In this document: positions 1,150 through 62,322 of the stretch, one piece after another
How the letters are laid out: every line of letters starts with the position of its first letter
Position numbering within the stretch: the first letter of the stretch is position 1
DNA from: Candidatus Microgenomates bacterium
Lineage (GTDB): Bacteria > Patescibacteriota > Microgenomatia > Daviesbacterales > UBA10151
Direction of reading: 5' to 3'
DNA: 64,000 nt
Assembly (NCBI GenBank): GCA_016182045.1
Contig: JACOYE010000007.1
Location: forward strand, 34,121-98,120
Program-made: the position numbers and the translations under genes
Notes under the pieces: generated by a model
Told to the model about the DNA's origin: nothing
The model's database searches: none
What the model saw: the letters and a program-made list of their open reading frames with translations, nothing else

Positions 1150-1167
1150 GTTTTTAGCTAACAGCTA

Positions 1168-1533
1168 TCAGCTAGCAGCTTTCAGCTTTTTAATAAGCCC
1201 TCCTATCATAGCACTTAATTCATCTACTTCTAGAAGAGCATTCTGTAAACTAGTCACAGAGGTCATTTTAAGACTAATTGCTATTTCTAGAGCAGCCAAT
1301 ACCTCATAAGCAGATCTCTGAGCCATCTTTAAAAATCTTATAAATTCTGCATCAGAACCTGCTCCTGATCCCTCGGCAATATTTAAAACAATACTTACAG
1401 TTGCTCTTCTTATTTGATCTACTAAACCAAATCGCTCAGTGTGGGGAAATTTTGAAGTTAATTCATATATAAAAGTTACAAACTTAATGGACCTTTGCCA
1501 AACAGTTAGTTTTCTAAATTTCTGAACATACAT
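1168..1533 (-). CDS. four-helix-bundle protein (23S rRNA intervening-sequence protein family)
   Basis: MYVQKFRKLTVWQ...LNIAEGSG pattern typical of TIGR02436-like proteins. Confidence 0.65.
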   Translation of the reverse strand: MYVQKFRKLTVWQRSIKFVTFIYELTSKFPHTERFGLVDQIRRATVSIVLNIAEGSGAGSDAEFIRFLKMAQRSAYEVLAALEIAISLKMTSVTSLQNALLEVDELSAMIGGLIKKLKAAS

Positions 1534-3062: not shown

Positions 3063-6000
3063 TTATTTATCTAAACCTAAATATTCATCCCAACTTTTGA
3101 TTTCTAAATCTTCCATTTTCTTAGAAACTAGGCTTGAAATTAACAGTTCTGCTGCTTGTAAGTTAGTCACTAAAGGTATACCTAAGTCTATACAATTTCT
3201 TCTGATAATATATCCATCAGTTTCTACTCTCTCAGATTTCGGCTCACTAATATTTATAGCCAGATCAATCTGACCTTTCTGTAAAAAGTCTAACACAGAA
3301 GGGTGTTTACCCTCAGATATTTTATACAGTCTGGTGTTGTTAACCTTCACATCTTTTAAGAATTTTGAGGTATGTTCTGTTGCATATATCTTAAAACCTA
3401 ATATTGCAAGCTGATTGGCAGACTCAAGTAAAGCTACTTTATTTATTTGCCCCCCAATTGACAAAAATACACTATTTTTAGGTATCTTAAATCCTGTGGC
3501 AAGCAAAGATTTAAGATAAGCTTCCCTTAGATCATCACCAAAACATGCCACTTCCCCAGTTGAGGACATCTCAACTCTAAGTCTTGGGTCAGCCCCTTTA
3601 ATTCTGTTAAAAGAAAACTGGGGAGCTTTCACTCCCACGTAATCTAAATCTATGGTCTTAAAATCACCAGTTATATTCTCTCCCAACATTACTCTTACTG
3701 CCATATCAACAAAATTATAACCTGTTACTTTTGACACAAACGGAAAGGAACGGGATGCACGAAGGTTTAACTCAATCACCAAAATCTTTAAATCTTTGGC
3801 TAAAAACTGAATATTAAATGGACCATTAATATTTAATTCGCGAAGTACTTTTTGGGTAGCATCCTTGATTTTTCTGACAGTTTTCAAATAGAGCTTTTGC
3901 GGAGGTAGGACAATGGTGGCATCACCAGAGTGGACTCCGGCATTTTCTATATGTTCCGTGATGGCATAAATGAGAAGCTGACCTTTTTTAGCGACTCCGT
4001 CAATTTCAATCTCTTTTGCGCCTTCTACAAACTTTGAGATTACCACTGGGTATTCTGAGGATACATTTGATGCTTGTTTCAGATATTTTTTTAGATCCGA
4101 TCCAGAATATGCTACATTCATGGCAGAACCTGACAAAACATAAGAGGGTCTTATTAAAACAGGATATCCTATTTTTTTGGCAAAAGTTAAAGCATCATCT
4201 ATTGTCTTTAAACTTTGCCATACAGGTTGTTCTATCCCCAACTTATCCAAAAGCTTGGAAAATTTGTTTCTATCTTCTGCCTTGTCAATACTTTCAGGTG
4301 AAGTACCTAATATCCGATATCTTGCTCTAAAACAATCCATGGCCAAATTATTTGAAACTTGGCCCCCAAAACCTAAAACCAGACTTGTATTTTGTTCCAT
4401 ATCATAGATATCACTTACTCGTTCAAATGTCAGTTCCTCAAAATACAACTTATCCGCAATATCATAATCTGTGGAGACTGTTTCCGGATTACAGTTAATC
4501 ATGATCGTCTGAAGACCCTTAGCCTTTAAAGTTTGAGCCGCAGTCACAGCACACCAGTCAAACTCCACAGATGATCCAATCCGATATGGCCCTGATCCTA
4601 AAACAATAGCTTTCTTACTATCCACTGTACCCTGTCCCCTGTCACCTATTTCAGATTCTTCTCCATGATATGTCAGATAAAGATAGTTAGTCTTGGCAGG
4701 AAACTCCCCTGCCAAAGTATCAATGTGTTTGACTTTGGGAACTATTCCATTCTTTTTTCTAAATTTTCTTAATTCCTCTTCAGTCATCTTGAATGTTTTA
4801 GCCAATAACTGATCTGAAAACCCCAATTTCTTAGCATCCATCACTAACTTGCTTGCCCCACGAAACTTTAGTGAAGTGGGGTTACTTGTTACTTGTCTCT
4901 TGTCACTTGGTAGATTTTTCTCAAAATCTACTATCTCTTTTATCTGATACAAAAACCAAGGATCAATTCCTGTTGCTTGATAGATACTATCTACAGATTC
5001 TCCTTTAACAAACCTTTGAGCAATGACAAAAAGCCGCTGGGTGGTGGGTAAAAGCTTGGTATCATCTATCCCATTTCCCAGTAACCCGTCTTGACCAGTC
5101 TCTAACATTCTGATTGCTTTTTGTAAACTTTCCGGAAAACTTCTACCAATTGCCATGACCTCCCCCACGCTTTTCATCTCAGAACCTATTTGCTCATAAG
5201 CTCCCACAAATTTTTGCAAGTCCCATCTGGGGATTTTAACCACAATATAGTCTAGGGAAGGTTCAAAAAAGGCAGAGGTAGATAAGGTGACACTATTTTT
5301 TAGATTTGGCAAACTATATCCTAAACCAATTTTGGCGGCAATATAGGCTAAGGGATAACCTGTGGCTTTGGAAGCTAAGGCTGATGAGCGAGAAAGTCTG
5401 GCATTAACCTCAATCACCCGGCAGTCGTTATTCTGGGGATTTAGGGCAAACTGGATATTACACTCCCCCACAATCCCCAAATGCTCAATAACTTTTAAAG
5501 ATAGCTTTCGCAAAAAATGATATTGATAATTGTTTAAGGTTTGAGATGGAGCAACCACAATACTTTCACCTGTATGTATACCAAGCGGATCCATATTTTC
5601 CATGTTACAAACAGTGATTTTGTTACCAGCTTTATCTCTGACCACTTCATATTCCACTTCTTTCCAATGTTTCAAATATTCCTCCACAGCAATTTGGGGG
5701 ACATGGGCTAATGCATTGGTAGCCATCCTGATCAATTCTTCTTTATTGTCAACCACCCCTGAACCCAAACCGCCCAGGGAAAAACCTGATCTAATTAGTA
5801 AGGGGTATCCTATTCTTTTTGAAATTTTTACAGATTCTTCGATAGTAGAAGCAAATCCCCCTTTCGGCACTTTAATATTAATCTTGGCAAGTTCTTTTGC
5901 AAAAAGCTCTCTGTCTTCTGTGATTTCGATTGATCTTACGGGGGTTCCTAAAACTTTTACACCATACTTCTTAAAGACTCCAGCTTTTTCGAGACTTAGC

Positions 6001-10549: not shown

Positions 10550-11623
10550 CTAAGTAATCTTCCCATTCTCTACCCTTAAAATCCTGGCTGAATCTAAAAA
10601 GGATTTGGGGATATTTTCTAATTCCACTGTGGCTATTATGGTTTGCTGTTTTCCTACTATTTCCACCACATGAGCACGATGTTTACTATCCAGTTCTGAG
10701 AAAATATCATCCAGTAAAAGTATTGGCCTTTTACCCAAAATTTTGGCCATATATTCCAACTGAGAGAGTTTAAAAGCCAAAGTGGCTGTTCTTTGCTCAC
10801 CCCTAGAACCATAATGGGCCAAGTTTCTACCATCCAGCAAAATTGCGAAATCATCCCGATGAGGTCCAATTAATGTTTGAGCTGCAGCCACCTCCCTACC
10901 ATTTGTTTCCATAAGTTTCTCCATACTAACTATGCTTGGTTTATACTCAAATGTAAACTCCCCCAAAGGTTTTTCCAATCCATCAATGAACTCAAAAAAT
11001 ACTTGTCTCTTATCACTAATCACTTTTCCCTTATCCACCAACTCTTTTGTCCAGTAATCCAGTTCATCCACCCTACTTTTTCCTTCCCTGATTCTTTTTA
11101 AAACCCTATTTCTGGCTACTAAAAACTGTTCATATGCTGTCAGAGCTTTCTTATAATCACTATCCACCTGGGCCAAGGCCAAATCCAGATGCCATCTTCT
11201 TAAAGATGGCGGTCCTGTCACCATATTTATATCCGAGGGATAAAAAATTACCGCCGGCAAATTACCTATAAAATCCAAAACCCTTCTTGAGATACCATTA
11301 ACTAAAACCTTCTTTCTAAAATTAACTTCCCCACTTCTGTTAAGAATAACTAAAAGTTCTGTGTCTCCGCCAGCTGGCGGATCAGTTAAGAATGCTTCTG
11401 CTCTACAAAACTTCTCTCCCTCCTTAATTAACTCATCCTCATTCTCAACTCTTAATGATTTAGTAATTGATAAAAGGTAGATTGCCTCCAAAAGATTGGA
11501 TTTGCCGGCAGCATTATTACCAACTAAAATGGTGGGGCGTTGGTCAAAATCCAAAGACAGGTTAGGATAATTACGAAAGTTTGTTAAATTAAGGCTCTTC
11601 AGAAACATAACCAAAATTTTCAA
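10550..11623 (-). CDS. recF: DNA replication and repair protein RecF
   Basis: Walker A GNNAAGKSNLLEA, LLLDDIFSELD signature. Confidence 0.9.
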   Translation of the reverse strand: MKILVMFLKSLNLTNFRNYPNLSLDFDQRPTILVGNNAAGKSNLLEAIYLLSITKSLRVENEDELIKEGEKFCRAEAFLTDPPAGGDTELLVILNRSGEVNFRKKVLVNGISRRVLDFIGNLPAVIFYPSDINMVTGPPSLRRWHLDLALAQVDSDYKKALTAYEQFLVARNRVLKRIREGKSRVDELDYWTKELVDKGKVISDKRQVFFEFIDGLEKPLGEFTFEYKPSIVSMEKLMETNGREVAAAQTLIGPHRDDFAILLDGRNLAHYGSRGEQRTATLAFKLSQLEYMAKILGKRPILLLDDIFSELDSKHRAHVVEIVGKQQTIIATVELENIPKSFLDSARILRVENGKIT

Positions 11624-11720
11624 TTACCAATAACCAATTTTCAATGAATTTACAATGTTTAAATGTTTGAAAATTTTAAAATTGGAATTTGATTGTAAAT
11701 TGAAAATTGTAAATTGTAAA

Positions 11721-13094
11721 TTACTTCCCTTCCCAGTGTCCCAACCCCAAAAATTCTCTGACATGGTACGGCAATTGTTCTTCCCTAAAAAATAGGCTTG
11801 GTTTAAGTCCAAATAACCCAATCAACATGATGATCGCCCCCAGTGCCATCAAAATCGGTGTGGTACCAAAAATATCTGCCAGCAGTCCCGCAAGAAGAAT
11901 CGGTAAAAGAGACAGTCCCGACATGGCTACTCCAAGAGTGGCAAAAACTTTGCCTCTGTCTTGCTGGGGAGTATTTTCCTGTAAGACTGTTTGAGATGGA
12001 ACCAAGATTGATACCATCACTATCCCCAACAAAAATGACACTACAACCAATACGGCAGATAGAGGGGGTTGATAAAAAAATGGTAATGGTTTGGGGCGAG
12101 GAAGATGCTGAATAGCTGGAACGATAATCGGGGCAATCCCCACCAAGAAAAACAGTAATCCCCCAAAAAGAATTGATCTTGCCACAACTATTCTTTTGAT
12201 TAATCTTTGACCGATTCTACCTAAAACTAATCCACCGATGACTATTCCTAAACCTAAAGGTATCACTAAAACGTATGAGGCATCTGTGGCAGTAATTTGT
12301 AAAGTTTTCTCAAAAAATGAGGGCATTAAAACTGCCAAAACCCCAATCAAAAGCTGAACCAAAGCCAAGATTACTACCGAGGTTAGTACCGACAACTTAC
12401 CTCGTATCAAGTGAATGGTCTCCAAAATTTCAAATAACCCTACCTCCTTTATGGTTGACAGATGTCTTTTTCTGATGGCCCAAATTAATTTTTTCCCCTG
12501 CATATCTGGTGCTGTCACAATGGAGGGAAAAATCAAGGAAAGTAAGAAGGCAAGGGATACAAGTGTCCCACCTAATCCAAAAACAAAATTAATGCCTAAA
12601 TGATTTATCAAAGGCCCTGCCAAAGCAAAACCTACCAAAAAACAGGAGAAAACTGTGCTGGAAAATATCGCATTGGCTGTTATTAGTTGATCCTTTTTGA
12701 CAATAATTGGAACTGCTGAGGCTTCAGCTGGAGTATAAAATTGCCCCAAAGCATTAACGAAAAAGGCAACAACAAGAATTGCCGGATAACTTTCTTTAAA
12801 AAATATCAGACTAAAGAAAGCCAAACTTAGCAAAAAATCAATCATCATGATAATTTTTTTTCGATCAGTGATATCAACTAAAACTCCTGAAAAAAGACCC
12901 AAAAGTAAGGCAGGAAGGTAGATGGCAAAAATAAGGGCTGAAACAGCGACTGATGAACCTGTTAATTGAAATACCCAGATAATTAAAGCAAAGTTTAATA
13001 AGTTATAGGAAAGCTGAACCAAAATTTGATTAATCCAAAGGTTTAAAAACCCCCGGTTTTTTATTACCGAGGTAAAACTGACTCTTGCGGTCAT
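11721..13094 (-). CDS. MFS transporter
   Basis: 457 aa, ~12 predicted TM segments. Confidence 0.7.
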   Translation of the reverse strand: MTARVSFTSVIKNRGFLNLWINQILVQLSYNLLNFALIIWVFQLTGSSVAVSALIFAIYLPALLLGLFSGVLVDITDRKKIIMMIDFLLSLAFFSLIFFKESYPAILVVAFFVNALGQFYTPAEASAVPIIVKKDQLITANAIFSSTVFSCFLVGFALAGPLINHLGINFVFGLGGTLVSLAFLLSLIFPSIVTAPDMQGKKLIWAIRKRHLSTIKEVGLFEILETIHLIRGKLSVLTSVVILALVQLLIGVLAVLMPSFFEKTLQITATDASYVLVIPLGLGIVIGGLVLGRIGQRLIKRIVVARSILFGGLLFFLVGIAPIIVPAIQHLPRPKPLPFFYQPPLSAVLVVVSFLLGIVMVSILVPSQTVLQENTPQQDRGKVFATLGVAMSGLSLLPILLAGLLADIFGTTPILMALGAIIMLIGLFGLKPSLFFREEQLPYHVREFLGLGHWEGK

Positions 13095-13099
13095 AACTG

Positions 13100-14032
13100 T
13101 CAGCTATTATACCCTTTTTGACAATTAGGGCAAAGGTATGTGCCTCGACCTCCTAATTGAATCTTCTTAATTTTCGTGCCACAAATTTTGCATGGATGTT
13201 TATCACGTCCATAGACATAAGCATAATCTAGAAAATAACCTTTATGGCCTTCAGCATCTACAAAATGAGCTCTGGTGGAACCTCCATATTTAATCCCATC
13301 TTTTAAAGATTTAATAATCCCTTTGTAAAGTTTTTTAAATTGTTCATCATTCAAATCTCTTACTCTTACTCGTGGGTCTAAACCTGCACTAAAACAAGCC
13401 TCATTAGAGTAAATATTCCCCACTCCAGAGACTACTGTTTGATCCATAGTAGCCACTTTTACAGGCATGGATTTATGTCTTAATAGGTTTTGTTTAAGAA
13501 TTTGCCAAGTAAATCCTCTTTCTAATGGCTCTGGTCCCAGATTTTTCAATGAACTGTCCACTGTAACCTGTCCCCTGTCCACTGCTTTAACCCATCCGAA
13601 CTTTCTTTGGTCATTAAAATACAAATGCGAACCATCTGAAAAACTGAATATAATCCTAGTATGCGCATTTGGCATTTTCCCCACCATATCTGGAGTAGGA
13701 TGCCCACCTACTAACCTTTGACCATCCTCATAAATTAATTGTCCAGTCATTTTTAAATGGAATAGTAGGGTAACAAAATTGTCATTCCCGCGTAGGCGGG
13801 AATCCAATTCCGAACGAGACTTTTTTAATTGGATCCCTGCATTCGCAGGGACGACGTCCACACCTAAATACTTAGCTTTTCTCCATATATTGAGTACTTT
13901 TTTACCCTCCACCAAATTTGGATTTCCAATGAAAGATTTAGCAGAATTTATTTGGATTTTGGTAATTTTTAACCCAACAATTTTCTTTTGTAACCCCAGT
14001 TTAATTGTTTCAACTTCAGGTAACTCCGGCAC
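13100..14032 (-). CDS. mutM: formamidopyrimidine-DNA glycosylase with in-frame palindromic-element insertion
   Basis: MPELPEVE N-terminus, C-terminal zinc finger CKICG...CPNCQ; ~30-aa insert between RKAKYL and LLFHLKMTG. Confidence 0.85.
   Translation of the reverse strand: MPELPEVETIKLGLQKKIVGLKITKIQINSAKSFIGNPNLVEGKKVLNIWRKAKYLGVDVVPANAGIQLKKSRSELDSRLRGNDNFVTLLFHLKMTGQLIYEDGQRLVGGHPTPDMVGKMPNAHTRIIFSFSDGSHLYFNDQRKFGWVKAVDRGQVTVDSSLKNLGPEPLERGFTWQILKQNLLRHKSMPVKVATMDQTVVSGVGNIYSNEACFSAGLDPRVRVRDLNDEQFKKLYKGIIKSLKDGIKYGGSTRAHFVDAEGHKGYFLDYAYVYGRDKHPCKICGTKIKKIQLGGRGTYLCPNCQKGYNS
13781..13855. repeat. ~75-bp palindromic element (family GTCATTCCCGC...GCGGGAATGAC), in-frame within mutM
   Basis: gtcattcccgcgtaggcgggaatccaatt...aattggatccctgcattcgcagggacgac; encodes VVPANAGIQLKKSRSELDSRLRGNDN. 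Confidence 0.8.
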
Positions 14033-19521: not shown

Positions 19522-20513
19522 CAGTGATGAACCCGTTTCTCTATCTTCACACCATCATTATCAACTGTCAAGGTTGTTACTTCACTTCCCCCTTCACCCT
19601 TTACCCTTACACCATCCAAATCAAACCACTTATCATCTCCTGTGATAGAAGAGACAGACACCAAACAATTCTCCAATTTACCAGTCACCAAATCATCAAC
19701 ACTCCATATTTTGGTATACCTTTTTTGAATTTGAGCATCTCCTGACCAACCCCTTGCTTCACAAAACCCTCCTATTGCTTTTGCTGCCACCGCTGCTAAA
19801 ATCCCTTCCTCAAATCCCCCACTGCCTATAATAAGATATACACCCTTTTTGTGGGTTGTAGGATCCATGAAAGATAAAATAGATGGCAAAAAATCTCCGG
19901 CTTTAATTAAAATTAAATTCACTCCAAATTTCTCACAAGCATTAATGTAGTGTGCATTTCTATCCCTGTCCATTACTACTACATTAATCTGGTGAGATTG
20001 AATCTTAAATGTGTCCACAACTTCAGCCAAATTTTCCTCAGGAGTTTTACTCATAGACAACTTTCCTTTAAGTTGGGGCGGGCCAAATAATTTATCCATA
20101 TAATCTGTATCATCAGGTGTTCTCATCAAACCTTTATGGGAAGAAACAGCTACAACAGATACAGCTCCGGGAGTGTTTAACTTAGCAGCTTTTGATCCTT
20201 CCACTACATCATTAACCATGTCCAGTTTTTTACTTCCTGATCCAAATGTACCCATCAAGGTAGGTAAAGCTTCACCATATTGGTGAACATGTTTTCTGCC
20301 CTCAGAACCCACTATTTCCAGGGTGAATGGGATATCAGTCAGAGAGGCTGCCATAGCATCTACACCAGCCTGATCTATTAATTTTTCTCTTTTAATAGAT
20401 TCTTCTTCAGTTAAAAGATCATCTGCAGTAAATCCTTGCTGCTGAATTAATCTCCAAACAGATAAAGCAGTCAACTCTGTGGCGCGGGTAATATGGTGTT
20501 TAACAGAATCCAT
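19521..20513 (-). CDS. glpX: fructose-1,6-bisphosphatase class II
   Basis: C-terminal LIKAGD...IIGSGGFEEGILAAVAAKAIGGFCEAR matches GlpX family. Confidence 0.75.
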   Translation of the reverse strand: MDSVKHHITRATELTALSVWRLIQQQGFTADDLLTEEESIKREKLIDQAGVDAMAASLTDIPFTLEIVGSEGRKHVHQYGEALPTLMGTFGSGSKKLDMVNDVVEGSKAAKLNTPGAVSVVAVSSHKGLMRTPDDTDYMDKLFGPPQLKGKLSMSKTPEENLAEVVDTFKIQSHQINVVVMDRDRNAHYINACEKFGVNLILIKAGDFLPSILSFMDPTTHKKGVYLIIGSGGFEEGILAAVAAKAIGGFCEARGWSGDAQIQKRYTKIWSVDDLVTGKLENCLVSVSSITGDDKWFDLDGVRVKGEGGSEVTTLTVDNDGVKIEKRVHH

Positions 20514-20528
20514 GAAGCGAAAATTACA

Positions 20529-21674
20529 CTACCCTACTGGTAAATTTTTGTCAACTAACTCCAAGATCTCTTTTTTAAATCTTTCTTTAGAAAAATTTTG
20601 GGCATTTTTTCGCAAAATTTCTGGATCAAATTTAGATGGATCAAATTTCTGTAAAGCATCCATTAAACTTTCCACAGTCACCATTCCTGAACCACCATAT
20701 AGAATGCCGGTCCTACCATCCACCACTGTTTCCAAAAATCCACCAGCTTTTGGGGCAATCACCAGGGTACCAGCGGCCATTGATTCCACAGGCACAATGC
20801 CAAAGTCTTCATCTTCTGAAGCCACAACGGTAGCTATAGCACCCGAATACAGCTTTGGTAATTCCTCATCACTTACCTGTCCTAAGAGTTCTATATGATT
20901 AAATTTGATATTTGATATTTGATGTTTGATATTGCTAAACTCTGGTCCTGCTCCCACCACTTTAAGTGGCAATCCCAACTTCCCACAGGCCTCAACTATC
21001 ACGCCTATCCCCTTTCCCCTAACTAATCTTCCTACTGAAAGATAGTAACCATCCTTTTTAGTCTTGAGATTTCTCTCCGCCTGACGGCGGATCGGAATGA
21101 CAGGGAGATTAACTGGAGGATAAATTACCACAGAATCTCTTCTATAAAACTTTTTAATTCTTGCCTGCACTTCTTTGGAATTTGCCACCAAAATATCGGG
21201 CCGCTGTGATGTTTCAAAATCATAAACTCGCAAAATTTGATTAGCTATTTCTCCTAAAATTTTGGTAATAGGATTTTTCTTATAACTAAAGGAGGTGGTG
21301 TAACCATATAAATATCTGGGAGGAGTATGTATATAGCTTATATGCAAGCTTTCAGGCTTGGTAATGACAGCTTTGGCAAAATAAATGCTACACGATGAGA
21401 TAACTAAGTCATATTCAGAAAGATCAAAACTTTCAAAGATTAAAGGAGCAAAAATTCTGAATGGGGAGATAAGTTTTGAAGCCAGTGGAATCTTTTGTAG
21501 CCAAGATGTTCTAATATCCCATTGTTTGATTCTTTCTGCATTGGGACCCAACTGATCGGGGTTGTAATAGGCAGTATACAAAGGAGCATTAGGAAAAATC
21601 TCATGGAGCACTTCTAATACACGTTCTGCCCCACCATATTCCCTTAAATAATCATGGACTAAAGCTACTCTCAC
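20529..21674 (-). CDS. glycosyltransferase family 4, carrying in-frame heptamer tandem repeat
   Basis: EDEDFGIVPVESMAAG GT4 motif; ISNIKHQISNIKFNHI encoded by repeat. Confidence 0.8.
   Translation of the reverse strand: MRVALVHDYLREYGGAERVLEVLHEIFPNAPLYTAYYNPDQLGPNAERIKQWDIRTSWLQKIPLASKLISPFRIFAPLIFESFDLSEYDLVISSCSIYFAKAVITKPESLHISYIHTPPRYLYGYTTSFSYKKNPITKILGEIANQILRVYDFETSQRPDILVANSKEVQARIKKFYRRDSVVIYPPVNLPVIPIRRQAERNLKTKKDGYYLSVGRLVRGKGIGVIVEACGKLGLPLKVVGAGPEFSNIKHQISNIKFNHIELLGQVSDEELPKLYSGAIATVVASEDEDFGIVPVESMAAGTLVIAPKAGGFLETVVDGRTGILYGGSGMVTVESLMDALQKFDPSKFDPEILRKNAQNFSKERFKKEILELVDKNLPVG
20893..20925. repeat. tandem heptanucleotide repeat (ATTTGAT)n inside glycosyltransferase gene
   Basis: atttgatatttgatatttgatgtttgatatt. 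Confidence 0.8.
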
Positions 21675-32551: not shown

Positions 32552-32639
32552 TTATACCATTGTATTAATATCTGTCAAATTAGTATGAGTCACTATTTTC
32601 TGATTTGTAATTTGTAAGCTAATATCCTATAATAATATT

Positions 32640-41714: not shown

Positions 41715-42077
41715 TCATGGCTTTTTTAACTTCTTCCAAAATTTTTTAGGCTTTTTCACTTGATGTAGTATTGCCTGGGATGAAGTTTCTGATTGTTTAG
41801 ATTTCCTTAACAGTAATTTTAGTTTTTCCATAATCCACATTCTGACCAAAGTTGATGGACCAATTCCCATTTCACTGCCTAATTTAGTCAGCTGAGTCAG
41901 GGTTTTGCCATCCATTCTCACTCCTAAAATATGCTCCAAGGGTTTTGCAAATTCAAGCTTAACTTCCTTCCAGGTTCCATAATCCAGCGGGCTATGTGTA
42001 TCCCAAAAATCAGCCTCCTCTTCATAGGATTTAAACTTTGGTATTTTCTTACCTTTTAAAGTTATCTTTTTATCCAT
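41715..42077 (-). CDS. brnA: BrnA-like antitoxin
   Basis: FKSYEEEADFWDTH...IGPSTLVRMWIMEKL. Confidence 0.6.
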   Translation of the reverse strand: MDKKITLKGKKIPKFKSYEEEADFWDTHSPLDYGTWKEVKLEFAKPLEHILGVRMDGKTLTQLTKLGSEMGIGPSTLVRMWIMEKLKLLLRKSKQSETSSQAILHQVKKPKKFWKKLKKP

Positions 42078-42334
42078 TTTCTAAAATTTCTTTTTTCTCT
42101 ATCATCCATCTCCCTAGCAGAAACAGGATAATAATCATAAAATCCTCTAACACCTACTATGACTAGTAAGTAACGACCGCCTTCAGTTCGTCCCCAGACT
42201 GCCATCTTAGTCTTCCCGCTTTTTATAGCAAAGTGCTTGGAAGAACAAACCTCCTCTACTTCATCTTGACTGACTCCATGCTTTCCAACATGCTCTATAT
42301 TCCACTCATCCCATATTAAATTTCTGATTTTCAT
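42062..42334 (-). CDS. brnT: BrnT-like (DUF497) toxin
   Basis: WDEWNIEHVGKHGVSQDEVEEV pattern. Confidence 0.65.
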   Translation of the reverse strand: MKIRNLIWDEWNIEHVGKHGVSQDEVEEVCSSKHFAIKSGKTKMAVWGRTEGGRYLLVIVGVRGFYDYYPVSAREMDDREKRNFRKWIKR

Positions 42335-42357: not shown

Positions 42358-43422
42358 TCAATCCATAAAATAATCCAACTTCATAGCCTTTTTAACTTCT
42401 TCTAATGTTTTTTGGGCTTCTGATCGGGCTTTTTCAGTACCTTCTTTGAGGATCCGTTCGACAAGCTCAGGATCTCGCTCGAATCGAGCTCGACTTTTTC
42501 TTATTGGATCCAGGAAATTATTTAAAACTTTAACCAGAAACTTTTTTACCTCAATATCCCCCACCTGGCCTTTTGTATAGCGAGATTTGAGATTTGAGAT
42601 TTGAGATTTGAGATTTTCAGGACCAAAGGCATCTAAATAGATAAAAACGGGGTTGCCTTCAACTCTACCTGGATCAGTAGCATGTATTCTTTTAGGATCT
42701 GTATACATATTCATCACCTTTTTCTCCACTTCTCCAGCAGTATCTGAAAGATTAATCACATTCCCAGCAGACTTACTCATTTTGGCTTTGCCATCTGTTC
42801 CAGGTAAAATGCCTAAATCTTCTGGTACCAAAGCTTCCGGTACTGGAAAAACCTGACCAGACACCTCCGAGGTGGGCTTTGACTCCTCGGAGGTGGATTG
42901 AGAAGATTTACCATAAACTCTATTAAATTCCCTGGCAATTTCTCTGGTAATCTCGATATGCGAAACTTGATCCTTACCCACCGGTACTAAGTGGCTTCTC
43001 ACCATTAAAATATCTGCTGCCTGAAGCACCGGGTAACCTAAAAGCCCATAGGAGGGAATGGTGATATGTGCATCTCTCATCACATCTTTTAAGGTGGGCA
43101 TCCGTTCAAGTCTGGGGACGGTGGTTAAATTGCCAAAAATGATGGCCAGTTCTGCCACTTCAGCTATTTGAGATTGAACATAAATGGTGGCTTTCTCAGG
43201 ATCAATTCCGACGGAAAGATAATCCAATACCATCTGGTAAATATTTTCCTTAAGCTCTTGGGTATCTTTAAGCTCAGGTTTAGTAGTTAAGGTATGCAAA
43301 TCCGCAACAATAAAAAAGCACTCATATTCATCTTGCAACCTGACCCTATTTTTCAAAGACCCCACATAATGGCCTAAATGTAATTTTCCAGTTGGTCTGT
43401 CCCCTGTTAATATTCTTTTCAT
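42358..43422 (-). CDS. trpS: tryptophan--tRNA ligase with in-frame heptamer-repeat insertion
   Basis: GDRPTGKLHLGHYVG and KMSKS motifs; NLKSQISNLKSQISNLKS repeat. Confidence 0.9.
   Translation of the reverse strand: MKRILTGDRPTGKLHLGHYVGSLKNRVRLQDEYECFFIVADLHTLTTKPELKDTQELKENIYQMVLDYLSVGIDPEKATIYVQSQIAEVAELAIIFGNLTTVPRLERMPTLKDVMRDAHITIPSYGLLGYPVLQAADILMVRSHLVPVGKDQVSHIEITREIAREFNRVYGKSSQSTSEESKPTSEVSGQVFPVPEALVPEDLGILPGTDGKAKMSKSAGNVINLSDTAGEVEKKVMNMYTDPKRIHATDPGRVEGNPVFIYLDAFGPENLKSQISNLKSRYTKGQVGDIEVKKFLVKVLNNFLDPIRKSRARFERDPELVERILKEGTEKARSEAQKTLEEVKKAMKLDYFMD
42583..42617. repeat. tandem heptanucleotide repeat (GATTTGA)n inside trpS
   Basis: gatttgagatttgagatttgagatttga... Confidence 0.8.
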
Positions 43423-43676
43423 AAGTTTTTACTTTTATCAGTATCCTTTTTTAATTTCTCAATAATCCACATCCTTGCTAAAGTGGTGGGACCAATACCC
43501 AGATGATCTGCTTTCTGCCGCAGCTTTTGAATATCGTCAGATTCAAACCTAATGGTTAATGTATCAGTTTTATTTGCACGGTGTAAACCAACTTTTATAT
43601 CCTTACCGAAAACATCTATGGCATCATGTTTATCCCAAAAATCAGCCTCCTCTTCTAAGGTTTTAAACGGCTTCAT
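43419..43676 (-). CDS. brnA: BrnA-like antitoxin (second copy)
   Basis: LEEEADFWDKHD...IGPTTLARMWIIEKL, paralogous to 41715..42077. Confidence 0.6.
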   Translation of the reverse strand: MKPFKTLEEEADFWDKHDAIDVFGKDIKVGLHRANKTDTLTIRFESDDIQKLRQKADHLGIGPTTLARMWIIEKLKKDTDKSKNL

Positions 43677-43705
43677 TGGTTTGATAGATCCCTTTTTAAC
43701 AAATC

Positions 43706-44002
43706 TTATCTTAATTTTTCGCCTCCCTTAAAATTTTCCATATATAATAATTGTTCTTTTTTCTTGGTGTACCTTGCAGTCACAAGTCCGTATCTATTTT
43801 TCCCACTTCTTGGTCCAACTACCACAGTAATTAACCTGCCTTTATTCGTTTTTCCCACTAACAAACTTTTATCAGATCTCCCCTTTAAAATTAAATAATC
43901 CCCAGCTATAACCTCAAAAACTTCATCTATTGTTATGCTGTGCCTAGCTATATGCTCTGGTCTATCTTCCTCAATAATCAGCTCATCAACAGTAACATCC
44001 AT
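43706..44002 (-). CDS. brnT: BrnT-like (DUF497) toxin (second copy)
   Basis: EEDRPEHIARHSITIDEVFEV...RLITVV pattern. Confidence 0.55.
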   Translation of the reverse strand: MDVTVDELIIEEDRPEHIARHSITIDEVFEVIAGDYLILKGRSDKSLLVGKTNKGRLITVVVGPRSGKNRYGLVTARYTKKKEQLLYMENFKGGEKLR

Positions 44003-61389: not shown

Positions 61390-62322
61390 TCAAGATGTCA
61401 AATTTCCCAAATATTCCTCTGCATCCATGGTGGCTTTACAGCCCATCCCTGCTGCTGTAACAGCTTGTCTGTAATGAAAATCTGCCACATCTCCTGCCAC
61501 AAACACTCCTTCTACCTCAGTATGGGTTTCATTTACAACCTTCACATACCCTTTCTCATCTAATGGCAATTGTCCCTTTAAAAAGTCAGTATTGGGTTTA
61601 TGGCCTATGGCAATGAATACTCCATCCACATCCATAGTGTTAATCTTCCCAGTTTGAGTATTTTTTATTCTCACTCCTGTCACTTTATCTTGTCCTAAAA
61701 CTTCATCTACCACGCAGTTAAAGATAAATTTCACATTGGGTTTGGATTTTACCAACTCTATTAGTGCAGATTGGGCCCTAAGTTGATCTCTCCTGTGAAT
61801 AACAGTGACACTCTTACATAACCTGGAAAGAAACTGTGCCTCCCTCATGGCAGTATCCCCTCCCCCAACCACAATTACATTTTTATCTTTAAAAAAGAAT
61901 CCATCACAAACAGCACAGGCAGATACTCCCCGACCACGTAAGCGTTGTTCAGACTCCAAGCCTAACCACATAGCTGAGGCTCCTGTTGCCAGAATCAAGG
62001 TTATAGTTTGTAGGTTGTAGGTTTCAGTTTGAATCACAAAAGGGCGTTTTTTTAAATCTACAGATAAAACATCTTCATTAATAAATCTGGTATTAAATCT
62101 TTCAGCTTGCTTTCGCATCTTGTCCATAAGATCTGGACCTTGGATTCCTTCAGGAAAACCGGGAAAATCATCAACATCTGTTGTCAAAATCAGCTGCCCA
62201 CCCGCTTCTCTACCTGCTACTACCAAAGGATTTAAATTTCCTCTAGCAGCATAAATGGCTGCAGTTAAGCCTGCAGGACCTGAACCAATGATGATTAGTT
62301 TCTCAACTTGGGAATTTGTCAT
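61390..62322 (-). CDS. trxB: thioredoxin-disulfide reductase
   Basis: FAD GSGPAG, redox-active CAVCDG. Confidence 0.9.
   Translation of the reverse strand: MTNSQVEKLIIIGSGPAGLTAAIYAARGNLNPLVVAGREAGGQLILTTDVDDFPGFPEGIQGPDLMDKMRKQAERFNTRFINEDVLSVDLKKRPFVIQTETYNLQTITLILATGASAMWLGLESEQRLRGRGVSACAVCDGFFFKDKNVIVVGGGDTAMREAQFLSRLCKSVTVIHRRDQLRAQSALIELVKSKPNVKFIFNCVVDEVLGQDKVTGVRIKNTQTGKINTMDVDGVFIAIGHKPNTDFLKGQLPLDEKGYVKVVNETHTEVEGVFVAGDVADFHYRQAVTAAGMGCKATMDAEEYLGNLTS

Follow-up and report, generated by a model that had tools for sequence, protein, structure and literature searches.

A microsatellite is expected to be purged from coding sequence, and from essential genes above all, when the length of its unit in nucleotides (nt) is not divisible by three; where such repeats do stand in genes, they are read as phase-variation switches. 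Here we describe a perfect heptanucleotide array that lies in frame within trpS, the tryptophanyl-tRNA synthetase gene, in a 64-kb stretch of DNA (the window; 64,000 nt of contig JACOYE010000007.1) from a Candidatus Microgenomates bacterium of the Candidate Phyla Radiation (CPR), together with the wider population of 7-nt arrays to which it belongs. Heptanucleotides are the commonest class of long simple sequence repeats (SSRs) in many prokaryotes and have been ascribed to polymerase slippage (Mrazek, Guo & Shah 2007, as cited in PMC4679880 and PMC4692102). As far as those accounts describe the long SSRs (LSSRs), the arrays reported here resemble them in being head-to-tail 7-nt arrays beyond chance expectation, in that 7 is favoured among the longer units, and in that slippage is invoked for their origin. 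They differ in that LSSR units that are not a multiple of three are described there as mostly non-coding, whereas 46 of the 64 arrays counted here lie in open reading frames (ORFs), including those of housekeeping genes, and in that the arrays recur at orthologous sites with differing units, and do so in a CPR bacterium.

Among genes with a translated 7-nt unit, the nearest specific precedent is neuO of Escherichia coli K1, an O-acetyltransferase gene whose poly-psi repeat, (AAGACTC)n, lies in the 5' part of the coding sequence and by its register determines full-length translation (PMC13001214). The neuO repeat is hypervariable between strains, with 3-53 copies, and switches a gene of prophage cargo ON or OFF (PMC13001214), whereas the trpS array has the same 5 copies in all four assemblies that carry it, lies in a housekeeping enzyme, takes the place of an existing helix and is conserved across species. 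Both repeats are read in three frames to give a 7-residue repeat, and both have A-rich units (AAGACTC and AAATCTC). In neuO the resulting heptad is RLKTQDS. Units related to that of neuO, AAAGACT and GACTAAA, also occur in relatives of the window (loci L088, position 14819, and L003, position 5056).

Heptamers that are found throughout a lineage are known from the cyanobacterial short tandemly repeated repetitive (STRR) sequences, from Beggiatoaceae (TAACTGA) and from Xanthomonas and Nostoc (GGGAATC), and these are unit-specific and mainly intergenic (PMC4692102, PMC4679880). The Microgenomates arrays are like them in being lineage-wide 7-nt repeats whose inverted pairs can form hairpins (PMC4692102; compare locus L082 below), and unlike them in that the units are very diverse and most of the arrays stand in frame within genes. 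Membership of the STRR sequences proper, which belong to heterocystous cyanobacteria and have specific, mostly intergenic units, was ruled out, since the host is a member of the Microgenomates, the units are diverse and 72% of the arrays are in ORFs. Minisatellites whose unit is a multiple of three (e.g., 21 nt, as in the heptads of Helicobacter pylori fucosyltransferase, PMC2583950) likewise encode a helix-compatible peptide with a period of seven residues; their copy number is free, whereas 7-nt arrays keep the frame only in three-unit steps. Our literature search found no report of heptanucleotide repeats in CPR bacteria or Patescibacteria, and matching by term found no mention of heptanucleotide or heptamer in Lin & Kussell 2012. 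In the searchable literature we found nothing to match the combination, in one CPR lineage, of heptamer arrays that are mostly in frame in housekeeping genes, hot spots at orthologous sites, turnover of units, concerted stop-avoiding evolution and helix-coding positions.

The trpS array, its helix and its orthologous site

Tandem Repeats Finder (TRF) reported the trpS array with a period of 7, 5.0 copies, 100% matches and a score of 70 (unit GAGATTT). At lag 7 its exact match extends over 28 bases, whereas none of 100 dinucleotide-preserving shuffles exceeded 12, nor did the 40 shuffles run through TRF yield a comparable array. A chance origin is excluded. Only two exact repeats of at least three copies and period 4-15 occur in the window, this one and another in a GT4-family glycosyltransferase gene, and both have period 7. 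With a short unit (1-11 nt) repeated head to tail over a length beyond chance, the trpS array is a microsatellite of the heptanucleotide LSSR class. An earlier reading of this DNA, made from the sequence alone (the sequence-only reading), had placed a heptanucleotide repeat inside trpS at 42583-42617; the repeat is real, and is the TRF array at 42582-42616 rotated by one base. The 18-residue peptide NLKSQISNLKSQISNLKS that was attributed to it is wrong, as it would require about eight copies and the actual array gives 11 residues. The proposed kinship with a repeat in the GT4 gene held up: TRF places that array at 20903-20933 as (ATTTGAT)x4.4, with a unit one base off that of trpS.

The host gene encodes a class-I tryptophanyl-tRNA synthetase. 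The class-I Trp/Tyr tRNA synthetase domain (PF00579) spans residues 3-304, and both the HIGH-type motif (TGKLHLGHY) and the KMSKS motif are present. The protein is 100% identical to a Candidatus Microgenomates bacterium protein that is annotated as tryptophan--tRNA ligase on a 184-kb contig, and its best matches among solved structures, 6ncr (1.5e-104, residues 2-346) and Deinococcus radiodurans TrpRS II (2a4m/1yi8), run end-to-end. The array begins in codon 269 (nucleotide 807 of trpS) and is translated as E-NLKSQISNLKS-R, in which 11 residues derive from the repeat. When the copy number was changed in silico, translation of TrpS stopped at residues 285-296 with 3, 4, 6 or 7 copies, and the only in-frame alternatives to 5 copies were 2 or 8.

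We used an AlphaFold2 model of TrpS built from an orthologue alignment (model m9999bfa74d4a, alignment A1) to place the encoded peptide. The array falls in a predicted helix, H269-283, and the block of residues 261-290 has predicted local distance difference test (pLDDT) values of 78-92. The repeat-encoded segment aligns to KEEVEEFKTRY of 6ncr, and a single face of the helix holds the hydrophobic residues L271, I275, L278 and Y282, at intervals of 4-3-4. NLKSQIS recreates the residues that are conserved at this site in alignment A1, namely K272, Q274, V/I275, Y/L/F278 and K279. K279 and Y282 are conserved in the alignment, Y282 invariantly, and the array ends one codon short of Y282.

Alignment A1 comprises 38 TrpS orthologues of 67-85% identity, all from Microgenomates, Daviesbacteria or Curtissbacteria. 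Such an alignment had been proposed as a check by the sequence-only reading. It shows a segment of the same length in orthologues, with other heptamer units or none at the same codons. The array matches the length of the orthologous xxExDKxQVxxYKxxY, which lies between the conserved FIYLDAF and KGQVGD motifs, and the segment between YLDAF and KGQVGD measures 17 residues in the window, which is also the modal length among orthologues (76 of the 107 scored; range, 15 to 23). Because orthologues that lack period-7 DNA at the site (L087, in which no period-7 array was found at the trpS site, and L004, L005 and L019) have the same 17-residue segment, the array is not a net insertion. Other orthologous loci carry different heptamer units there (Table 1). 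A translated-heptamer signature (at least 8 of 12 residues) was present at the trpS site in 31% of 119 orthologues, as against 0.03% of all other 12-residue segments of those same TrpS proteins, and the codons of this helix are therefore a strong and specific hot spot for heptamers, with at least three different units. All TrpS orthologues examined are in frame at the site. The copy number is 5 in all four assemblies that have the AAATCTC array (the window and L089-L091), which is a small sample. The repeat appears stable and is most likely harmless.

A second repeat structure lies elsewhere in trpS, at codons ~171-193 (window 42844-42913, minus strand). It is an in-frame imperfect palindrome with 29-nt arms that are 72% complementary and a 12-nt loop (core CCACCTCCGAGG / CCTCGGAGGTG), and it encodes an 18-residue insert, SSQSTSEESKPTSEVSGQ, with a patchy distribution among orthologues (present in TrpS proteins P0002-P0004, P0037 and P0082). 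Its form suggests a small hairpin element that entered the gene without loss of the frame.

Period-7 arrays in other genes and genomes

The GT4 array lies between the GxGPE and IEFLG motifs of its host, and at this site the orthologues show at least seven families of peptides translated from heptamer arrays (NIKYQISNIK, NLKSQMSNLK, NFKFQISNFKF, SLKFKVQSAKS, TNYQLPTTN, VTCNLKP and NLESRIKNLG). Forms with an array exceed the short form by about four residues, a difference that no whole number of units would give. Identity among GT4 proteins is 0.758 within array classes versus 0.726 between them, and the nearest neighbour shares the array class in 17 of 66 cases, so that the classes do not form clean clades. 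In the GT4 model (medb73aae9861, mean pLDDT 85), F246-I256 is a helix flanked by two beta strands. From the TrpS and GT4 models, and thus for two arrays only, our reading is that heptanucleotide arrays may survive where a heptad-periodic peptide can replace a surface amphipathic helix.

TRF found 11 period-7 arrays in the window, compared with a mean of 2.6 and a maximum of 7 in 40 shuffles, and the pattern ATTTGAKATTTGAK has 7 matches in the window versus 0.47 expected. The survey took in some 0.3 Mb of CPR DNA in the neighbourhood of a few genes, with longest ORFs standing in for gene calls, and a control set of 1.1 Mb of non-CPR loci, which came from the search of genome contigs for TrpS relatives, whose matches were mostly non-CPR bacteria. 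Period-7 arrays occur at 17.2 per 100 kb in the window, 31.8 in close relatives (126 kb), 12.8 in other CPR loci and 5.8 in the non-CPR set. The other periods from 4 to 15 reach at most 9 per 100 kb in close relatives and other CPR loci; in the window itself period 9 stands at 14.1 and period 8 at 9.4. Exact lag runs of at least 10 bases in the close relatives number 18 at lag 7 and 10 at the harmonic lag 14, with 0-1 at each of the others (4-15). A minority of the TRF arrays with a score of 30 could be due to chance, to judge from the shuffle rate of ~4 per 100 kb.

Within 291 kb of CPR DNA there were 64 period-7 arrays, 46 of them (72%) wholly in ORFs, 8 overlapping the end of an ORF and 10 intergenic. 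Coding sequence makes up a fraction of 0.918 of this DNA, and the density of arrays is therefore about four times higher outside genes than within them, though most are genic. We conclude that tandem arrays of exactly 7 nt are both made and retained in this Microgenomates lineage, the majority inside genes. These ultra-small CPR bacteria bear in-frame arrays in TrpS, CarB, Fpg, GlpX, a Pol I-type exonuclease and glycosyltransferases, at recurrent sites. The description of the trpS repeat as an in-frame heptanucleotide microsatellite in a housekeeping gene is borne out, with the addition that it is one of a wider population of arrays. The 5'-3' exonuclease gene alone holds four separate period-7 arrays (L084 13691-14725; orthologues L088 13127-14101 and L003 4677-5681); one of these sites has three units in three orthologues, and another is identical in L084 and L088. 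In Fpg, the linker past RKFGWVK is built from GGACAGT, AATGGAA or TAAAAGC in three orthologues (alignment A2; L084 16667, L019 13298).

The AAATCTC unit itself is also found in metagenomes. At least 120 metagenome contigs carry an exact (AAATCTC)x4, and the 80 that we analysed range in GC content from 0.31 to 0.66. Among these 80 loci, the arrays within ORFs typically have 4.3-5.1 copies and encode (S)NLKSQISNLK(S) in many unrelated proteins, two of which are GT4 proteins with the array at the same structural site. To judge from their flanking peptides, further hosts have local motifs that resemble those of TsaD, GuaA, DnaG and TatD. Other period-7 arrays occur on those contigs at 21-25 per 100 kb, and heptamer-rich genomes are therefore widespread, in agreement with heptanucleotides being the commonest long SSRs of prokaryotes in the accounts of PMC4679880 and PMC4692102.

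At one CPR locus an array and its inverted copy stand side by side. In L082 (4150-4252), an ATP-grasp/citrate-lyase-type gene carries (AATNTCA)n at its 3' end, where the array supplies the protein tail ...GNIKTQMSNVKSTT, and an inverted copy follows directly. Together they form a bulged hairpin of ~45 bp (RNA minimum free energy -31.4 kcal/mol, z=-4.6), which is possibly a terminator built from heptamer arrays.

Origin and maintenance of the arrays

We consider the trpS array to be probably a slippage-born and homogenising heptanucleotide microsatellite, in frame in trpS and kept because its 7-nt unit gives a heptad peptide suited to an amphipathic helix, and neither a transposable element nor a switch. 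Such arrays would arise and stay uniform through replication slippage, or transient misalignment of neighbouring units, and a unit could be overwritten by its neighbour (intra-array conversion), which would change the sequence at constant net length. Because 7 and 3 are coprime, translation of the array passes through all three frames in succession, and its peptide has a period of seven residues. In TrpS this peptide appears to form one helix of the C-terminal helical domain, where seven residues would make about two turns and set L and I on one face. Gain or loss of one or two units would truncate TrpS and be removed by selection, which would hold the copy number at 5. Since each base of a homogenising heptamer array falls in codon positions 1, 2 and 3, such an array has no synonymous site, and it would therefore decay slowly.

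The behaviour of the units is consistent with this reading. In the trpS gene of L212, the unit is AAATCTT in three of five copies, with a G where T would make an in-frame TAA, and the last unit keeps its C. One exonuclease array reads ATTTGAA in L084 and L088 and ATTTAAA in L003, which is a concerted G-to-A change with no change in length, and the unit that falls in a stop frame (TGA or TAA) is rescued at the same place, by GAA versus GGA. A stop-containing consensus unit was found in 15 of 33 coding arrays, and these persist only when interrupted, with a point change that rescues the frame. AAATCTC is free of stops in every frame. The pattern fits a sequence-blind mutational process that would make and homogenise 7-nt arrays and be filtered by selection for an open frame, and the concerted changes would imply an interaction between units within an array. 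We also asked about codon usage as the sole determinant of the units. The observed stop-free units have a median codon-usage rank of 333 of 1608, so that codon usage is a partial explanation at best.

Several observations weigh against this account. No slippage event was directly observed, and all four array-bearing assemblies have the same 5 copies. Conversion without a change in length is read from sequence patterns only. A few unit families recur in unrelated genes and taxa beyond what codon usage would predict. The TrpS model is mediocre overall, with a mean pLDDT of 62, and helix placement was examined for just the TrpS and GT4 arrays. Finally, an identical array with identical flanks is found in trpS genes that are only 73-75% identical elsewhere, and array types ignore whole-gene similarity; the shared array could be accounted for just as well by recombination or by selection acting on the DNA itself.

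Short-patch homologous recombination (gene conversion) would have brought the array tract into trpS from related Microgenomates, the arrays being allelic cassettes at fixed sites. We give this route a real chance, though one that falls short of even; it concerns how the array arrived in trpS and is compatible with an origin by slippage elsewhere. Evidence for it comes from a single groundwater lineage, represented by the assemblies L089, L090 and L091 (TrpS protein P0027). These share the array and its flanks with the window trpS, and the match, with the array at its centre, is exact over 60 nt and has a single mismatch over 83 nt. Outside this match the window and L089 genes are 73% identical, with the same codon at 52% of identical residues. 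The array segment is 100% identical between the window and L089 (gene, 75%) and between L084 and L088 (gene, 76%), and 41-59% identical in pairs with different array types (gene, 67-81%), so that array types are either fully conserved or strongly diverged, independently of gene-wide identity. The 18-residue hairpin insert of the window trpS recurs in its nearest relatives (P0002-P0004), yet these have other arrays or none, and the AAATCTC-type (type-A) carriers P0027 and P0033 are without the insert. Informative sites alternate in runs along the whole of trpS, 134 against 107, which is suggestive of mosaicism and not decisive, and the GT4 array classes, with their 17 of 66 like neighbours, are nearly uncorrelated with GT4 similarity. 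On the other side, every pair shows the array flanks to be among the better-conserved stretches of trpS (in L086, 0.87 versus 0.77 gene-wide), the array itself supplies much of the L089-like signal, a star-like phylogeny yields similar alternating runs, and homogenisation together with selection could likewise freeze an array. Two explanations remain for the shared array: it was either exchanged by short-tract recombination or is old and frozen.

A broader proposal would combine homogenisation and exchange. In Microgenomates, and in the other heptamer-rich lineages of metagenomes, an active process in a 7-nt register would create arrays within genes and continually homogenise them, repeatedly supplying and rewriting surface amphipathic helices of housekeeping proteins. 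The arrays would behave as long-lived cassette alleles at fixed hot spots, frozen because they have no synonymous sites and exchanged between species by short-tract recombination. We put this forward tentatively and regard it as rather unlikely; if true, it would be an undescribed mode of protein evolution, with an unknown feature of replication or repair setting the period. The trpS locus is itself most likely benign; what deserves attention is the pattern across the lineage and its unexplained specificity for 7 nt. If the pattern is true genome-wide, it would represent a testable case of mutation bias shaping proteins (from 7-nt repeat to heptad to amphipathic helix), it would give a handle on the unexplained 7-nt preference of prokaryotic slippage, and it would warn annotators and phylogeneticists that such segments do not evolve site by site.

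The array could instead be a functional motif that selection keeps for its DNA or RNA, for instance to bind proteins of the single-strand-binding or cold-shock type in an array, or to make translation pause. Direct repeats of heptamers can bind CspB at one protein per heptamer (PMC4679880), the inverted heptamer arrays at the L082 gene end give a significant hairpin, and the trpS array is perfectly kept while synonymous sites elsewhere are near saturation. We nevertheless think this very unlikely: orthologues have quite different units or none at the trpS site, and no single sequence is therefore required there. At the trpS array, a promoter and terminator scan found no such site, RNA folding gave no significant structure (z=-1.1) and an Rfam search returned no match.

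The sequence-only reading had suggested a propagating element, and part of that suggestion stands. The same array does occur in frame in unrelated metagenome genes and in GT4 orthologues, and the trpS and GT4 genes of the window share a near-identical array and peptide. The other part, that a mobile, self-propagating microsatellite-like element inserts in frame, is unsupported, and we judge it very improbable. The flanks of the trpS and GT4 arrays align only within the repeat, and those of the 80 metagenomic contexts are unrelated. The filled trpS site is no longer than the empty site (17 residues in both), the units are highly diverse and often contain stops, and there is no transposase or integrase beside trpS, whose neighbours are toxin-antitoxin pairs.

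We see scarcely any likelihood in a contingency switch of the neuO type, in which slippage would turn the gene on and off. The unit is indeed not a multiple of 3 and lies inside the coding region, as does (AAGACTC)n in neuO (PMC13001214), and a change of one unit truncates TrpS. However, trpS has a housekeeping role and is presumably essential and present in one copy, and the array has just 5 copies, constant in four assemblies from two lineages. Similar arrays stand in carB, fpg, glpX and the oxidoreductase gene, which are housekeeping and not surface or contingency genes, and arrays are conserved between species rather than hypervariable. An assembly or sequencing artefact, which the sequence-only reading had named as what would refute the repeat, can for practical purposes be dismissed, as a read is longer than the array (35 nt), the reading frame is intact, the identical array is present in three assemblies of another lineage (L089-L091), and related arrays occupy the site in many independent assemblies.

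Positions of the arrays and neighbouring elements

Table 1 Arrays and host genes in the window, and heptamer units at the trpS site of orthologous loci.
Feature	Positions	Strand	Description
trpS array	42582..42616	-	perfect heptanucleotide repeat; (AAATCTC)x5 on coding strand, (GAGATTT)x5 on plus strand; TRF
trpS	42358..43422	-	tryptophanyl-tRNA synthetase, 354 amino acids, array host; PF00579, E=4.6e-75
TrpS helix E269-T283	42574..42618	-	single predicted alpha helix, core array-encoded; AlphaFold2 model m9999bfa74d4a
GT4 array (second array)	20903..20933	-	(ATCAAAT)x4.4 on coding strand, (ATTTGAT)x4.4 on plus strand; one mismatch; TRF score 55; encodes SNIKHQISNIKF
GT4 glycosyltransferase gene	20529..21674	-	PF00534 and PF13692; hosts the second array
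carB array	4621..4647	-	carbamoyl-phosphate synthase large chain; imperfect period 7, CAGGGGA on coding strand; TRF, Pfam
carB second array	4884..4909	-	imperfect period 7, GACAAGT; TRF, Pfam
fpg array	13553..13584	-	imperfect period 7, GGACAGT, directly after RKFGWVK; TRF, Pfam
glpX-type fructose-1,6-bisphosphatase array	19585..19613	-	imperfect period 7, GGTGAAG; TRF, Pfam
Pyridine-nucleotide disulphide oxidoreductase array	61998..62023	-	imperfect period 7, ACAACCT; TRF, Pfam
Intergenic period-7 cluster	11621..11722		CAATTAC, ATTGTAA; between RecF/SMC-like and MFS transporter genes
bAvd-like gene array	1156..1187		AGCTATC x4.6 at gene 3' end; TRF
Short intergenic array	32603..32617		ATTTGTA x2.1; TRF
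trpS site, window			(AAATCTC)x5
trpS site, L081			CAACTAC AAACTAC CAACTAT AAACTAC
trpS site, L085 and L001			(AAACTAC)x4, one mismatch
trpS site, L084 and L088			AGTCACA AGTCACA AGTTATA AGTTATA
trpS site, L086			AAGTCAC (AAGTTAT)x3

The trpS gene is enclosed by BrnT-toxin/CopG-antitoxin pairs on both sides (window 41715-42334 and 43419-44002), and the upstream antitoxin gene overlaps the trpS start. Because orthologous loci bear other toxin-antitoxin families beside trpS (PemK, PhdYeFM, PIN/MazE and CopG), the neighbourhood looks like a landing zone for toxin-antitoxin modules.

The intergenic cluster belongs to a region (window 11610-11730) of repeats of period 7 to period 11 (CAATTAC, ATTGTAA, AATTTACAATG) that are partly inverted, with a weak hairpin (z=-1.7). 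The array at 1156-1187 lies in a gene (window 1156-1533) for a four-helix-bundle protein of the 23S-rRNA-IVP or bAvd-like type (PF05635, with a weak match to PF22296). The bAvd-like gene led us to consider a diversity-generating retroelement, which we set aside, as the arrays are tandem repeats and not template/variable-region pairs.

A palindrome also occurs in fpg, at codons ~60-84 (window 13781-13855, minus strand). It is in frame and imperfect, with 29-nt arms that are 76% complementary and nested hairpins (TCCCGCCTACGCGGGA), and it encodes the insert ...AGIQLKKSRSELDSRLRGNDN. The insert is absent from three Fpg orthologues, and the fpg gene of L088 has a different insert elsewhere.

Among the TrpS orthologues, P0005, P0006, P0011, P0022, P0039, P0050 and P0071 have N-terminal extensions such as MKRILTLRQTQGENTKKRILTG (alignment A1, columns 1-30). 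These duplicate the true start (MKRIL) and continue into low-complexity peptides typical of translated repeat elements, and they are probably mis-called starts that cross an upstream repeat. Some TrpS orthologues (P0023, P0024, P0028 and P0047) are fused to a tRNA_edit (PF04073) or tRNA_bind (PF01588) domain, and other relatives have separate genes for these domains beside trpS (L084 and L088; L081, L082, L085 and L086).

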